Shown in pieces: positions 2,815 through 41,908 of a stretch of 47,725 nucleotides of DNA. Under the pieces are notes generated by a model. It searched no databases, was not told the DNA's origin, and worked only from the letters and a program-made list of their open reading frames with translations. How positions within the stretch are numbered: position 1 is the first letter of the stretch; every line of letters begins with the position of its first letter. This DNA is from a virus (taxonomy: Duplodnaviria > Heunggongvirae > Uroviricota > Caudoviricetes): positions 1 to 47,725 of the IMG/VR virus record IMGVR_UViG_2617270974_000008, one strand, 5' to 3'. A program made the translations under genes and the position numbers.

Positions 2815-5195
2815 TAGATTGACTCCCCCACCTGAGCATCAGTCAATGCCTTGTGCCATATTCTGAAATTCCTGACATGACCAAATAAATGACGTAACCC
2901 GGCTGTAGTCTGGCCTCCAATACGGATCATTGCGGTGTTCTGAATACAGGACCATGTGGTTTTTGTTTCGCTGGATATATGCCCGTTACTTACTGAGCAC
3001 GTAGACTGCTCTGACTTTACACGCATCCCCATAACCATTTTTTCAAGCGATGCGTTTTCGTTTACCCGTCTGTTAGCTCCTCCAATATCGCAATAAGGAA
3101 ATCCGTCGTAATCTGTTGAACGACCGAAGCCAAGAATAATAGCCGCTCCGGTTTGATGACCGCCGGTATCAAAAACACGTGGCGCTGCATTTGGCGTTTT
3201 ATACCAGTTCTTATGTACCTCACAAAGAACCGTAAAAGGAAGATTATAAAGATTATTCTTAATTGGAACTGTAACTATATCGCTTGCGCGGGTCGCCGCC
3301 GTCGCTCCTGATATAATAAAAGATGATACACAAGGCCCATCTTCTACTTGTGGGGTGGCCAGATAAATATAATCACCAGATACGGTTGCCCCGCTCTGCT
3401 TAGGAGAATACTGTATCTGAGAGCCTATTTTTAACTCCCCATCAATTGCCTGAATTGTTGCCTCTGCAAAAATCCATCCGGTAGCTTCGTCCTTTCTGAC
3501 TCTCGCTGTGATCCTTGAGGCAGCACCGCCTGTCATATTAATTTCAAGCGTTTGTGTATCAATATACGCATCACCAAGAAAAGTTGTTGCGCTACCGTCA
3601 TATTTATCAAACCGGATACGCAACCTTACCTGCAGTTCTGTTTTAAAACGACATGAGGTTGTCACGTGTTTATTATCGCCTGAGACATCAACTGACTTTG
3701 TTGCAGCAATTGATGCCATATTAATGGCTGAGGTTTGCCCAATCAGAGAATCGTTGCAGACAAACTTTCCATAGGTAAAACCAAAATTATCCGTCCCTGT
3801 TTCGGGCACATCCATATTTGACGATCGCCCCCAACTGGCAGGGCTTTCCGAATTGAGCATGTAGTTTGTTCTTTGCCCCTCAATAAGCAGGCCATCACGT
3901 TCAAATCGTGGCTCGTCAATGGCAGCCTCTGTCAGCACACCAGATTTGTTAATATAGGTTGCTTTCGATGCACGTTTAAACTTAACAATCTTGTCGCCAG
4001 GCATCGTTATTTCATCGTCACCAATAACAATTTTTTTATATGATGGCGAAAAGCCCGTAATCATATCCAGCGAATCGTTAAATGGTATCCACACATCAGG
4101 CAGCGGCTGTAAGACATATTTATACGGCTCCGCAGCCTGGCTTGCGTACTCTCTGGCTGCATCTTCGCTTGCTTTAGCTGCCGTCTGGCTTGCTGCCGAT
4201 GCTTTCGCTGAGTTCGCAGCCGCTGTTTCGCTCACCTTTGCGTTGGTTTCACTGGTTTTTGCTGCTTTTTGACTGTTAGCTGATGCAGTGGCAGAAGCAG
4301 CCGCCGCGCTTGCAGAACTGGCTGCGGCACTCTCGCTTTGGGCCGCTGCATCCTGACTGCTTTTCGCCGCAGTTTCACTGGCTTTGGCATTCGTTTCGCT
4401 GGTCTTCGCTGCCGTCTGGCTGGACTTTGCGTTAGTTTCACTCGTCTTCGCAGCTTTCTGGCTGTTAGCCGCAGCAGTTGCTGATCCAGCTGCTGAAGTC
4501 GCAGAACCGGCTGCCGCGCTCTCGCTTTGGGCTGCTGCAACCTGGCTGTTTTTTGCCGCAGTTTCACTGGCTTTAGCATTCGTTTCGCTGGTCTTCGCTG
4601 CCGTCTGGCTGGACTTTGTGTTGGTTTCGCTCGTCTTTGCGGCTGTCTCGCTATTTTTCGCGTTGGTTTCTGATTTTTTAGCTGCTGTTGCGGAGTTTGC
4701 CGATGCAGTCTGCGAGGCCGCTGCCGCCTGTGCGCTGTTAGCTGCATTTGTTTCTGAGGTTTTCGCCGCGTTCTTCGATGATGCCGCTGCAGTTTCGGAT
4801 TTCTTTGCCGCCGCTGCGCTCTGAGAGGCGGCTTCAGCGTTGCGTGCCGCTTCTTCCACCATTTCCTCAAAACGACGCAATGCCTCCGGCATGACATCAT
4901 CTTCCGTCATGGCACCGAGAAAATCATTCAGCGTACCTGGTCTGGAACCTTCATAGACGGTAATGATCCCGGCATGTGAAGGCGGAAAACCTTCAACCAG
5001 CAGGATAACGCTATACTGGCCATACTCAACGTCCATGCTGTAACGCCCGGCTTCATCCGGATTTTCAGAGGCCACCGTGTTCACCAGTACAGTGGTGCTG
5101 TTACGCTTTGCCTTCAGTTGAATAGTGCAGTTCTGTATTGGTTTTCCCGCACCATCTTTCAGCACACCTGAGATTTTTACTGCTGCCATATCCAC
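2814..5195 (-). CDS. stf: Side tail fibre protein (lambda Stf-like N-terminus, Ala/Ser/Thr repeat array, LamG-like C-terminus)
   Basis: 793 aa; N-terminal ~110 aa match recalled lambda Stf (AVKISGVLKDG...GRYSMDVEYGQYSV...); C-terminal ...HVRNFRIWHKALTDAQV resembles end of concanavalin-like/LamG jelly-roll domains. Confidence 0.85.
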   Translation of the reverse strand: MDMAAVKISGVLKDGAGKPIQNCTIQLKAKRNSTTVLVNTVASENPDEAGRYSMDVEYGQYSVILLVEGFPPSHAGIITVYEGSRPGTLNDFLGAMTEDDVMPEALRRFEEMVEEAARNAEAASQSAAAAKKSETAAASSKNAAKTSETNAANSAQAAAASQTASANSATAAKKSETNAKNSETAAKTSETNTKSSQTAAKTSETNAKASETAAKNSQVAAAQSESAAAGSATSAAGSATAAANSQKAAKTSETNAKSSQTAAKTSETNAKASETAAKSSQDAAAQSESAAASSASAAAASATASANSQKAAKTSETNAKVSETAAANSAKASAASQTAAKASEDAAREYASQAAEPYKYVLQPLPDVWIPFNDSLDMITGFSPSYKKIVIGDDEITMPGDKIVKFKRASKATYINKSGVLTEAAIDEPRFERDGLLIEGQRTNYMLNSESPASWGRSSNMDVPETGTDNFGFTYGKFVCNDSLIGQTSAINMASIAATKSVDVSGDNKHVTTSCRFKTELQVRLRIRFDKYDGSATTFLGDAYIDTQTLEINMTGGAASRITARVRKDEATGWIFAEATIQAIDGELKIGSQIQYSPKQSGATVSGDYIYLATPQVEDGPCVSSFIISGATAATRASDIVTVPIKNNLYNLPFTVLCEVHKNWYKTPNAAPRVFDTGGHQTGAAIILGFGRSTDYDGFPYCDIGGANRRVNENASLEKMVMGMRVKSEQSTCSVSNGHISSETKTTWSCIQNTAMIRIGGQTTAGLRHLFGHVRNFRIWHKALTDAQVGESI
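4240..4700 (-). repeat. Tandem coding repeat (about 192-bp period, roughly 2.3 copies) inside stf
   Basis: Near-identical DNA blocks (gcattcgtttcgctggtcttcgctgccgtctggctggacttt recurs about 192 bp apart); encodes repeated AAKTSETNAK... segments. Confidence 0.7.
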
Positions 5196-38836: not shown

Positions 38837-39583
38837 TTACTTCACAACCCTCATATTGCTGACATTTGGACGCCAGCTATCCCAGTTAAACGTCACCCAT
38901 CGACCACCGTTCATGGTCATGCGGTCCATAATCCTCTCACCAAGAAGCGTACTCATTGCGGCATGATTCAGGTTTGTTAACATCCCGACACTGCACAGTG
39001 ATGCTGTCCGGCGATCAATTATCTGGTGCAATACCACCTGCTCGTTTTTCGTCTCCCGCTGAACGCCTATTTCATCCAGGACCAGCAAATCAACCCCGCA
39101 AAGCTCCTGTAAAAATTTTTCCCCGGATTTGCCGTTGTCGTAGCTGTCATGCAACACGCTCATGACGTCAGACACGGTGACGATAATCACGCTGCGCCCC
39201 TTCACCATCAGCCGGTTGCCCATCGCCGCTGCAAGGTGATTTTTCCCGGTGCCGGTTTTACCGCTGAACACAAAATTCGTGCACCCGGTCATCAGTTCGT
39301 CAGCTATGGATTTGGCCTGGCTCAGCGCGTATTTTTGCCCGTCGTTCTGCACCTGATAATTTGCAAACGAGCATTTGCTGTGCAGAGGCTGGATGCCCGA
39401 ACGATTCAGGATTTTTTCCACCCGCAACTGGCGATTCTGGCGGTTAATCTCCTCGCTGCGTTTTCGTCCTTCAGCAAGTTGCCATTCCCGCCACTCCTCC
39501 ACCGTCCGGTACGGTGGAACCGACCCCTGTGGTGCAAGTCTGCGAATACGTTCAAGAACCCCAACTGCCGCAATGTTTTTCAT
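38837..39583 (-). CDS. DnaC-like helicase loader (IstB/DnaC AAA+ ATPase)
   Basis: 248 aa; Walker A GKTGTGKNHLAAA, Walker B DLLVLDEIG. Confidence 0.9.
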   Translation of the reverse strand: MKNIAAVGVLERIRRLAPQGSVPPYRTVEEWREWQLAEGRKRSEEINRQNRQLRVEKILNRSGIQPLHSKCSFANYQVQNDGQKYALSQAKSIADELMTGCTNFVFSGKTGTGKNHLAAAMGNRLMVKGRSVIIVTVSDVMSVLHDSYDNGKSGEKFLQELCGVDLLVLDEIGVQRETKNEQVVLHQIIDRRTASLCSVGMLTNLNHAAMSTLLGERIMDRMTMNGGRWVTFNWDSWRPNVSNMRVVK

Positions 39584-39589
39584 GACACG

Positions 39590-40552
39590 TCACCCCCTGA
39601 ATCCCGGCGGTATTTCAGTGTCCGGTTCAGAAATGTGATTCACGCAACGCTGCGCAGGCGAACGCCCCAGGCGGATAACCAGTTCATCCCATTTTTCCCG
39701 GAGTTTTGCCGGACTCATGATGTTTTTTACCCAGAACGAATCCCGCTGGAGACGCCCAAACATTTCACAAATTTGTCTGTGAGTTCTGCCATCCAGCATC
39801 CGCATTGTGCGAACGTCATTGGCCCATGCTGTCCAGTTGGGTTCTTTCGGTCTAGTGATCTCGCCATCATAGCTGGCCGCCTGCTCGTAAAGACTCACGA
39901 TTCGTCCCCAGATCCACTGTGCGCACACCAAATCTTCCTGACTTCCCCACTGGCGTTTTTTCGCACTGAACACAACCGCGTCAGGGTGTCGGGTTAAAAA
40001 ATCCTGTTCAGCCGTCTGCGGGTCCGGTTGCGAAGCGTCCGGACAAGAAGATCTTTTATCTGACGGATCAGGTTTTAATACTGACGGATCGGGGTCAATC
40101 ATCGCCCCCCTAATCGGCAGTTTTTTATCAACAGTTGATCCATCAAAATTTGACGGGTCAACCGTTGAGGGGGCAATATTTGACGGGTCAACTGTTAACG
40201 GGTCATTTTTTGCCGGGCTAATTTTTCTTTTCGGTTTATATGACTCACGCGCCGCCGCCGCAGCTGCTTCGAGTTTTTCCACATTAAGCCGATAGATATT
40301 GCTTACATTACGCCCACCGACCTTACGCTCTTCCTTCGTCAGCCAGCCCTCTTTCGCCAGTTCTGCAATAGCCGATTTCACTGTGGATTCACTTCTTGCA
40401 CCGATCTGACGCCGGATAGTTTCAATGGCAGGCCATGACACGCCCTCGTCATTGCTGTAGTCTGCAAGACGGGCCATAACCGCCACCCTGGATAAGATCA
40501 TGCCGGTGAAGGCGCACCCTTCCCAGACAAGACCATGAAGCTTGCTGCTCAT
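39590..40552 (-). CDS. Replication initiator / replisome organiser (O-like; N-terminal HTH, repeat linker, DnaT-like C-terminus)
   Basis: ORF 39590..40567; start at ATG 40552 with GGGGG SD; internal DPSN/VD peptide repeats encoded by iteron DNA. Confidence 0.75.
   Translation of the reverse strand: MSSKLHGLVWEGCAFTGMILSRVAVMARLADYSNDEGVSWPAIETIRRQIGARSESTVKSAIAELAKEGWLTKEERKVGGRNVSNIYRLNVEKLEAAAAAARESYKPKRKISPAKNDPLTVDPSNIAPSTVDPSNFDGSTVDKKLPIRGAMIDPDPSVLKPDPSDKRSSCPDASQPDPQTAEQDFLTRHPDAVVFSAKKRQWGSQEDLVCAQWIWGRIVSLYEQAASYDGEITRPKEPNWTAWANDVRTMRMLDGRTHRQICEMFGRLQRDSFWVKNIMSPAKLREKWDELVIRLGRSPAQRCVNHISEPDTEIPPGFRG
40061..40220. repeat. Iteron-like direct repeats (TGACGGRTCA and variants) plus adjacent AT-rich tract: candidate origin
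   Basis: Six copies at about 40061, 40082, 40151, 40181, 40196, 40211, then AT-rich ttttttgccgggctaatttttcttttcgg. Confidence 0.55.
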
Positions 40553-40574
40553 AAAACCCCCGAACACCGTGCTT

Positions 40575-41000
40575 TTAGTGCATCACCACAGCATTCCCTG
40601 CCGGGCCGCCGCGATTCATCTGGTCATACAAAACAACCGCTGACGCAACAAAATCATCGACATCCTTCACCAGCCGATCCCTCCGTTCGACGATCTCACG
40701 GTAATATTCAGAACTGTGGCTGCGCATACGGGCCACCAGCAAAGGCGGCATCGCCTTTTCGATCGCCGGTAACAGAGCCTGCATTTTTTCAACAGCATCA
40801 GGGGTGTCTTTATCCAGCCAACGGAAAATTTTCTGGGTATTACGGGCCAGGGCTTCCGGATGGCTGTCGTCGTACAGTTCAGGGAACGTCATCCCCAGTT
40901 CGAAATAAGTCCGGGCTATTTCAGCTGCAGGAACTTTCTCACCATCAGGGTATGCCCAGGCATTCATCGCCATGCGGATGTGCTCATGTTTGATTTTCAT
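40575..41000 (-). CDS. YdaT-like protein (occupies cII-like position)
   Basis: 141-aa ORF directly downstream of Cro-like gene and upstream of replication genes; Rac YdaT resemblance from memory. Confidence 0.6.
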   Translation of the reverse strand: MKIKHEHIRMAMNAWAYPDGEKVPAAEIARTYFELGMTFPELYDDSHPEALARNTQKIFRWLDKDTPDAVEKMQALLPAIEKAMPPLLVARMRSHSSEYYREIVERRDRLVKDVDDFVASAVVLYDQMNRGGPAGNAVVMH

Positions 41001-41307
41001 GAATCATTTGCCTCTTGATGCTTCGGGTATGATCGTTTTCGTCATTTGGTTGCTTCATCGACATATTCTGCGAATAACATGACGAGCGTCGTAAGTATGT
41101 CCAATCAACATCAGGACGAAGTTCTTCACACAGGACACCACCTTTTGTTGCTCGTTCAATCGCAGGACATCTCTCAGCAGGTAACTGACGTACACCTTTG
41201 ATCCATTGATTTACGCTTGGAGGAGATACACCTAAAAGCCTAGCCATTGCTGATTGCCCACCGACAACAGCACAAGCTCGTTTGAATGAATAGTTATCTT
41301 TTTTCAT
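40984..41307 (-). CDS. Cro-like HTH protein (YdaS-like)
   Basis: ORF 40984..41328; start at MKKDNYSFKRACAVVGGQSAMARLLGVSPPSVNQWIKG (ATG 41307, GGAG SD); resembles Rac YdaS as recalled. Confidence 0.75.
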   Translation of the reverse strand: MKKDNYSFKRACAVVGGQSAMARLLGVSPPSVNQWIKGVRQLPAERCPAIERATKGGVLCEELRPDVDWTYLRRSSCYSQNMSMKQPNDENDHTRSIKRQMIHENQT

Positions 41308-41334
41308 CGAATGAACTCCAAAAAACACGCAACA

Positions 41335-41380
41335 ATATTAGGCTTAGCCTAATGAAATTGTCAATAGGCTATGCCTAATA
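41335..41380. promoter_or_regulatory. Right operator/promoter region: palindromic operators overlapping strong leftward promoter
   Basis: TTAGGC-TTA-GCCTAA (about 41338-41352) and aTAGGC-TAT-GCCTAA (about 41365-41379); minus-strand TTGACA-18-TAATAT overlaps first site. Confidence 0.6.
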
Positions 41381-41431
41381 CATCGAGAGTAGGGATTGCC
41401 TAACGCGATGCGCATAGGAGACTATTAAGCA

Positions 41432-41908
41432 ATGCTTAGTGGTAAAGACTTAGGCCGAGCGATAGAGCAGGCCATTAACAAAAAAATTGCATCAGGAGCC
41501 GTCAAATCAAAGGCGGAAATCGCACGTCATTTCAAAGTCCAACCACCATCAATCCATGACTGGATTAAGAAAGGTTCGATAAGTAAAGACAAACTTCCAG
41601 AACTATGGCGTTTCTTTTCTGATGTGGTTGGTCCAGAGCATTGGGGGCTTAACGAATACCCCATACCAACCCCATCCACTTCAGATACAAAAAGTGAACT
41701 TTTAGACATAAACAGCCTTTATCAAGCCGCCTCTGATGAAAAAAGAGCAATTGTGGCTTTCATCTTATCTGGAAATGCTACGGAGCCTAGTTGGGTTGAT
41801 CATGACGTTCGCGCCTACATTGCCGCAATGGAAATGAAGGTAGCTAACTATCTGAAAAATCAAGAATCAAAACGGAAAAGCCAGAACATCACCAAGACAG
41901 GAACTTAA
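41432..41908 (+). CDS. Prophage repressor (RacR-like; HTH, no S24 peptidase domain)
   Basis: 158 aa; HTH near KAEIARHFKVQPPSIHDWIKKG; divergent from Cro-like gene; no Ala-Gly / Ser...Lys autocleavage motifs seen. Confidence 0.75.
   Translation: MLSGKDLGRAIEQAINKKIASGAVKSKAEIARHFKVQPPSIHDWIKKGSISKDKLPELWRFFSDVVGPEHWGLNEYPIPTPSTSDTKSELLDINSLYQAASDEKRAIVAFILSGNATEPSWVDHDVRAYIAAMEMKVANYLKNQESKRKSQNITKTGT

Follow-up and report, generated by a model that had tools for sequence, protein, structure and literature searches.

The initiator gene and its surroundings

In the window (the whole 47,725-nt stretch of DNA analysed), the minus-strand gene at 39590-40552, taken from the open reading frame list and with a start that agrees with RefSeq, encodes a 320-aa protein currently annotated just as 'helix-turn-helix domain-containing protein'. 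The identical gene (100%) was found in many E. coli chromosomes, within a complete-looking lambdoid prophage beside ompW, and at least 99% identity to it was found in 1287 records, which amount to about one quarter of the complete E. coli genomes. The PHROG 391 profile, 'replication initiation O-like', matched the protein over its full length (E 2e-115, aa 1-320 on profile positions 1-298 of 298), and Pfam returned HTH_36 alone, at the N-terminus and with 27.9 bits, DnaD_N remaining under the cutoff. AlphaFold models delimited three parts: an N-terminal winged helix (aa 1-105), a linker predicted to be disordered (aa 108-174, pLDDT below 50) and a helical, lambda-O-like C-domain starting, by BLASTP and AlphaFold, at about aa 153 or 178 and reaching aa 297, after which comes the tail ...IPPGFRG. 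In BLASTP searches, aa 153-300 aligned with residues 145-277 of lambda O (35% identity, E 9e-26), and the C-domain matched phi80 gp15 with an E-value of 9e-26. Residues 1-150 showed no BLAST similarity to lambda O or phi80 gp15 and no Pfam match to the lambda O N-domain; with tblastn, the N-domain matched, though weakly (38% over 74 aa, E ~1e-5), O genes carried by some Stx phages. A Foldseek search with the whole model returned weak matches (E ~4e-3), all of them winged-helix regulators, a result that serves to name the fold of the N-domain and nothing more. On these models, the N-domain appears to be a winged helix whose structural neighbours, at weak E-values, are dimeric winged-helix regulators. 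The sole match of the initiator in a sequence search of the PDB was its DnaT-like C-terminal tail.

Directly downstream, also on the minus strand, lies a gene for a DnaC-like helicase loader (38837-39583), which matched NCBIfam NF009043 (1e-152), DnaC (2e-89) and Pfam IstB_IS21 and is 80% identical to YdaV of the K-12 Rac prophage. Upstream of the initiator are YdaT-like and YdaS/Cro-like genes and, divergently oriented, a RacR repressor gene whose product is 91% identical to K-12 RacR. A candidate pR-like sigma-70 promoter, recognised by consensus match alone (TTGACA-18-TAATAT, 41335-41364, minus strand), would transcribe the ydaS-like, ydaT-like, initiator and loader genes, and hence would cross the repeats described below. 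The early region as a whole (38837-41908) is a mosaic of K-12 Rac in which the initiator has been swapped for an unrelated N-domain plus C-domain.

In a small sample of about 11 genes, the C-terminal tail of the initiator (39590-39650, the last ~19 codons) was seen to track the downstream partner gene. Tails of the type ...(I/V)P(P/A)GFRG occur with a DnaC-like gene or no loader (the window, K-12 YdaU, mEp460, SfII and Citrobacter), and those of the type ...NTDW.../WNTPEGW..DVL with a lambda P-like gene (lambda, phi80, Salmonella, Serratia and Morganella). The GFRG tail also matched, weakly, the C-terminus of the host DnaT protein.

A 15-bp tandem array within the initiator gene

The initial annotation had pointed to six TGACGG(A/G)TCA-like 10-mers in the middle of an O-like gene, spaced 15-70 bp apart. 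Allowing up to one mismatch, TGACGGRTCA matched 11 times in the 47.7 kb (5.4 expected by chance), and six of these matches fell in 40061-40205, at 40061, 40082, 40136 (minus strand), 40151, 40181 and 40196, far above the ~0.016 matches per 145 bp that chance density predicts. A search free of any motif, the kind of repeat finding that the annotation had proposed as a check, recovered five copies at exactly 15-bp spacing (40128-40217), and at 40128-40205 TRF called a 15-bp period with 5.2 copies as well as a 30-bp period with 2.3 copies and 79% matches. The matches to the 10-mer are irregularly spaced, as had been noted, but the underlying arrangement is not: a degenerate copy, TTGAGGGGGCAA at 40165-40176, fills what looked like a 30-bp gap, so that the repeats amount to an unbroken array of 15-bp period and two copies distal to it, 21 bp from each other.

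The array comprises five full 15-bp units (40133-40207, minus strand), which we propose as initiator-binding sites (iterons). Their 12-bp cores are TTAACGGGTCAT (40195-40206), TTGACGGGTCAA (40180-40191), the degenerate unit 3 already mentioned, TTGACGGGTCAA again (40150-40161) and TTGATCCATCAA (40135-40146). A decayed sixth unit, of which the left half-site alone is left, follows at 40120-40131 (minus strand; TTGATAAAAAAC on the coding strand), and with it the array spans 40120-40207. The cores are dyad-symmetric, of the form TTGA-N4-TCAA, and are separated by 3 bp. Read in frame on the coding strand, the units are AAT GAC CCG TTA ACA, GTT GAC CCG TCA AAT, ATT GCC CCC TCA ACG, GTT GAC CCG TCA AAT, TTT GAT GGA TCA ACT and GTT GAT AAA AAA CTG, and the peptide encoded by the repeats of this minus-strand gene (39590-40552) is NDPLT-VDPSN-IAPST-VDPSN-FDGST ... 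DPS ... DPS. The array corresponds to aa 116-140 of 320 and the distal copies to aa 155-164, between the winged helix and the C-domain and inside the predicted disordered linker. The repeats are in frame in the middle of a gene whose C-domain is homologous to lambda O, and encode a DPSN/VD linker, just as the annotation had it.

Only two sites of the array in the window are perfect, and they lie 30 bp apart. Position 40173 is G in the window, which makes unit 3 TTGAGGGGGCAA, with an Ala codon (GCC) and one arm mismatch, whereas in about 68 of 80 near-identical relatives from IMG/VR the base there is T, so that unit 3 reads TTGAGGGGTCAA, with an Asp codon and perfect arms; the third site of the window is thus a minority, weakened allele among those 80 loci, all of them 97-99% identical to the window. 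Among close alleles the length changes in steps of one 5-aa (15-bp) unit, with proteins of 320, 315, 310 and 305 aa, and some have lost one distal copy (-7 aa, 21 bp); overall they range from 303 to 320 aa and go down to two tandem units. Among natural alleles more broadly, the array has from about 2 to 7 units in proteins of 305-333 aa. This variation in unit number could equally be read as slippage tolerated in a linker.

Conservation of the sites at the DNA level

We then compared 14 homologous genes (13 non-redundant), from phages SfII, 689R6, phiNP, YeP1, Kp4866-6 and Kp1-LV and from prophages of seven genera (Mixta, Edwardsiella, Erwinia, Citrobacter, Salmonella, Serratia and Morganella). 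A 15-bp tandem array was present at the same place in every gene of the set, and 63 tandem units were taken from the 13 non-redundant genes, those of SfII, phiNP, YeP1, Kp4866-6, Kp1-LV and the seven genera. The two most informative of the 15 unit positions were third-codon positions; as the units of the PFM were chosen by a 6-of-8 motif match, the information at arm positions is partly circular and hence inflated. One of those two positions was T in 62 of the 63 units, although the codon concerned encodes nine different residues, and the other was A in 61 of 63. The Ser codon of the unit was TCA in 47 of 49 cases, compared with 13% TCA among the Ser codons elsewhere in the same genes; this contrast and the motif-free 15-bp period are free of the circularity. 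The mid regions contained 48 windows with perfect TTGA-N4-TCAA arms; among 19,478 windows elsewhere in the genes there was not one.

The peptide, in turn, was poorly conserved, with nine residues at unit position 1 and P, G, A or T at position 3. The G/C-rich centre of the unit reads CCCC or CCCG in some units and GGGG in others, and since TTGACCCCTCAA and TTGAGGGGTCAA are mutually reverse-complementary, these represent one site used both ways round, which yields DPS or EGS/DGS peptides. Near-invariant synonymous positions together with the use of both orientations indicate that the constraint acts on the DNA and not on the peptide. What the annotation had named as an outcome that would speak against it, repeats due solely to protein constraint, is accordingly not borne out by the synonymous sites or by the two orientations. 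The peptide itself appears to be a loosely constrained linker, the conservation belonging to the DNA.

A separate class of GATC boxes

The two distal copies, which the initial annotation had counted with the rest as a single class of six iterons, turned out to be of another kind. Box 1 (40082-40090, minus strand), iteron-like, and box 2 (40061-40069, minus strand), 21 bp away, both read GATCCGTCA on the coding strand and contain the Dam site GATC (40087-40090 and 40066-40069, respectively). Across the homologous genes, the D-P-S boxes distal to the array, two or three per gene, encode Asp as GAT and so create GATC in 14 of 14 genes, whereas GAC is the Asp codon in the D-P-S units of the array, likewise in 14 of 14. 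The distal boxes are thus a separate conserved class, always GATCCRTCA and hence always a Dam site, and in the window they sit inside the stretch equivalent to the lambda unwinding region (40045-40092, see below). Their spacing varies from 12 to 24 bp among genes, and many genes have AGATCT 16 nt further on, like the window, where a third GATC lies within AGATCT (40050-40053). Three GATC sites are in this way gathered within 41 bp (40050-40090).

The synonymous choice of GAT at the distal boxes suggests either that a Dam site is conserved or that a distinct protein has its site there. In oriC, a GATC-rich 13-mer region gates firing after each round. By a more speculative reading, which we regard as rather unlikely, the GATCCRTCA boxes might form a Dam-methylation- and SeqA-sensitive switch on the unwinding side, acting with the close-packed 15-bp initiator array; if true, such a switch would gate origin firing after each round.

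A+T content and other candidate origin elements

The A+T-rich tract placed by the initial annotation next to the repeats does exist: 40205-40245, which encodes YKPKRKISPAKN, has 32% G+C compared with 51% in the whole window. It is a modest tract, equalled or bettered by two other 40-nt stretches of the initiator gene, 40112-40151 (30% G+C, the highest A+T content that the gene reaches over 40 nt, and the place of the decayed sixth unit) and 40045-40084 (33%). We considered 40205-40245 as a lambda-like unwinding element and rejected it, as it lies promoter-proximal to the array and is not A+T-rich in the SfII-type homologues. By alignment and composition, the stretch that matches the position of the A+T-rich unwinding region of lambda and phi80 is 40045-40092, between the array and the conserved C-domain, with 40% G+C over its 48 nt and 33% in the best 40 nt. 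At the equivalent place, G+C is 20% in lambda, 33% in phi80, 30% in SfII and 28% in mEp460. A+T-richness is weak throughout the initiator gene, where three stretches tie and the best 40 nt have 30% G+C compared with 20% in lambda.

DnaA boxes were not enriched in the window (87 matches, 85 expected), and no IHF consensus was found near the repeats; the DnaA and IHF elements of a plasmid-type iteron origin (a Rep protein with iterons outside the gene, DnaA boxes and an IHF site) do not characterise this locus. One of the two perfect copies of the DnaA-box consensus in the window, TTTTCCACA, is located at 40275-40283, ~70 bp promoter-proximal of the array.

Comparison with known phage origins

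In lambdoid phages, the origin is made up of iterons and an A+T-rich tract located midway along gene O (PMC7466680), and the lambda ori arrangement was what the initial annotation had invoked. In placement and in C-domain homology the likeness stood. The annotated lambda iterons correspond to aa 117-145 of 300, the same relative place as the array of the window, and in both genes repeated dyad sites lie mid initiator gene, where the DNA-binding N-domain borders on the C-domain that recruits the loader, and encode a flexible linker; in both, a loader gene follows and transcription from a rightward early promoter crosses the sites. The A+T-rich tract singled out in the annotation, however, is upstream of the repeats in gene orientation, and that of lambda and phi80 downstream. 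Nor did the comparison of spacing with lambda ori reveal the same geometry: the four sites of lambda are 18 bp long, with their starts 20, 24 and 23 bp from one to the next, whereas the window has 12-bp cores with a 15-bp period, in five or six tandem sites plus the two distal ones. Further differences concern the N-domain (O-type in lambda, Pfam HTH_36 in the window), the A+T tract (20% G+C in lambda, 30-33% in the window), the loader (lambda P, as opposed to a DnaC-like protein) and the tail of the initiator (...NTDWIYGVDL in lambda O, ...IPPGFRG in the window). As 15 bp is about 1.4 helical turns, neighbouring sites would face nearly opposite sides of the DNA, unlike the lambda sites with their spacing of about two turns, so the complex cannot be a plain copy of the lambda O-some, or else alternate sites alone are used. 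The features of the ori-lambda class found here are the in-gene array, the lambda-O-like C-domain, repeats that are DNA-constrained and specific to the N-domain, and the loader gene downstream; the lambda O family proper, defined by Pfam Phage_rep_O and 18-19 bp iterons about two turns apart, differs from the window in both N-domain and iterons.

The origin in gene 15 of phi80 has four annotated gp15 sites with a 21-bp period (aa 122-147 of 303), again at the place of the window array. Right after these sites, phi80 has CAGTATTAAAAGATCTTCGTCCGA, which resembles the coding strand of the window at 40045-40080 (...CAGTATTAAAACC...GATAAAAGATCTTCTTGTCCGGA), GATC included. phi80 differs in having another N-domain, the iteron TTCCCGAAAACGGGAA, a two-turn spacing and a P-like loader (gp14).

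Full-length relatives of the initiator, annotated as O-like or 'primosomal protein' and belonging to PHROG 391, are found in the Shigella phages SfII and SfIV, the Escherichia phage Kati and Klebsiella and Yersinia prophage-like phages, with N-domains 62-72% identical to that of the window (66% for the SfII type). These relatives share the tandem array with its 15-bp period, in the corresponding position, and the pair of GATCCRTCA boxes; their unit is TCTGAC-N3-TCAAAA, compared with (A/G/T)TTGA-SSSS-TCAA in the window, and these phages mostly have no adjacent DnaC-like gene. In phage mEp460, a C-domain 86% identical in DNA to that of the window is combined with an unrelated N-domain; where the window has its array, mEp460 has five or six dyad repeats with a 23-bp period, CATCRGGYCATTTTGACCYGATG, unrelated to those of the window. 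In the O-like gene of mEp460 (locus positions 2258-2429), the 23-bp repeats are followed by three 12-bp TATTCTCTGTAG repeats. DNA similarity between such mosaics starts or stops at the border between repeats and C-domain, at window positions ~40057 and ~40090. On the same C-domain, then, the repeats change when the N-domain changes, as is also seen in lambda and phi80; as far as these sequences go, this is the classical pattern in which an initiator N-domain and its sites move as one.

The origins of P22 and phage L were likewise inferred from repeats within gene 18; in phage L these are six imprecise 11-bp repeats, considered to be the likely origin (PMC8022706). The likeness to P22 and L lies in this kind of evidence; the repeat sequences differ, and the partner there is a DnaB-type helicase (gp12), not a loader. 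The K-12 Rac prophage (ydaU-ydaV, oriJ) shares with the window the backbone of the early region, and the two initiators share their last 19 aa, at locus positions 3420-3477 on the K-12 side. YdaU has a DUF1376 N-terminus and otherwise no similarity to the window initiator, so that oriJ was dropped as a direct precedent. Since YdaU is unrelated save for the tail and has repeats of its own, the oriJ literature is uninformative on the site studied here. The repeats of K-12 ydaU are four copies of AAGCAGATGTTCAA mid gene (locus positions 2972-3063), spaced 33, 33 and 12 bp, which are candidate oriJ iterons. In the literature, no paper was found that describes the repeat family of the window or the origins of SfII and SfIV.

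A proposed origin of replication

Taken together, the periodic array, its placement as in lambda and phi80, the constraint at the DNA level, the covariation with the N-domain, the disordered linker, the loader gene and the precedents in the literature lead us to conclude that the segment, inside the initiator gene, is very probably the vegetative origin of a lambdoid prophage of E. coli whose early region is of the Rac type. The candidate origin that the initial annotation had placed in the O-like gene is, in this sense, supported by comparative evidence. From sequence, we infer initiator binding, unwinding, loader recruitment and origin activity.

Sites bound by the initiator need not be where replication starts. 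They might serve autoregulation or copy control, for instance by blocking transcription into the C-terminal half and the loader gene or by handcuffing, with the start elsewhere, for instance in the intergenic region at 41280-41340 (28-33% G+C). Plasmid iterons are known to have control roles besides initiation, the A+T-richness beside the repeats is weak, and the most A+T-rich DNA nearby is precisely this region between cro and the repressor gene. The region is, however, an operator/promoter by its promoter match and what it varies with is the type of immunity rather than that of the initiator. Moreover, lambda, phi80 and the Stx phages, the characterised relatives whose C-domains are homologous, all have in-gene iterons as their origin, and the mosaic junctions at the border between repeats and C-domain are as expected if N-domain and sites form a replicon-specificity unit. 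We therefore hold a purely regulatory role of the sites to be improbable.

It is more improbable still that the motif is read by a factor other than the initiator, be it a host protein, Dam/SeqA (which would concern the GATC boxes only) or the YdaS/YdaT regulators. The strict retention of GATC in the distal boxes and the presence of genes for YdaS/YdaT-type regulators just upstream would agree with such a factor, but most tandem units have no GATC, and the motif type goes with the type of initiator N-domain across the mosaics, whereas the upstream regulators vary (YdaS/YdaT in the window, CII/YmfL-type in SfII, Phage_CP76 in Citrobacter). A 12-bp dyad would, besides, suit a dimeric winged helix. 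Least credible of all, and with hardly any chance of being right, is that the repeats are just a flexible protein linker of DPSN/STV pentapeptides growing and shrinking by slippage, in DNA without a cis role: they do encode in frame a predicted disordered linker, and alleles do differ in 5-aa steps, but the poor conservation of the peptide, the near-invariant synonymous positions, the use of one DNA site both ways round for different peptides and the choice of GAC or GAT for Asp according to position all stand against it.

For the origin that we favour, a mechanism can be proposed. Initiator dimers would bind, through their N-terminal winged helices, the 12-bp TTGA-N4-TCAA dyads at 15-bp intervals (40120-40207) and probably also the two GATCCGTCA boxes (40061-40090), the whole making up an O-some-like nucleoprotein complex. 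Opening would take place in the moderately A+T-rich DNA at or just past the promoter-distal end of the array (~40045-40150). The lambda-O-like C-domain and the GFRG tail would then recruit the host DnaB through the neighbouring phage DnaC-like loader, and the pR-like promoter (41364 to 41335) would transcribe through the origin.

An O-type in-gene origin is a known arrangement, and the one proposed here leaves current understanding in place; the iteron family is what had not been previously described. Recognition of the initiator as an O-type protein with an internal origin provides a landmark for prophage annotation, aids the reading of read-depth peaks after induction and the building of replicons, and pinpoints the replicon-specificity unit exchanged among lambdoid mosaics. 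The family, whose sites occur in two orientations, in varying copy number and as related variants, offers a natural series for the co-evolution of a winged-helix initiator with sites that overlap its own coding sequence.
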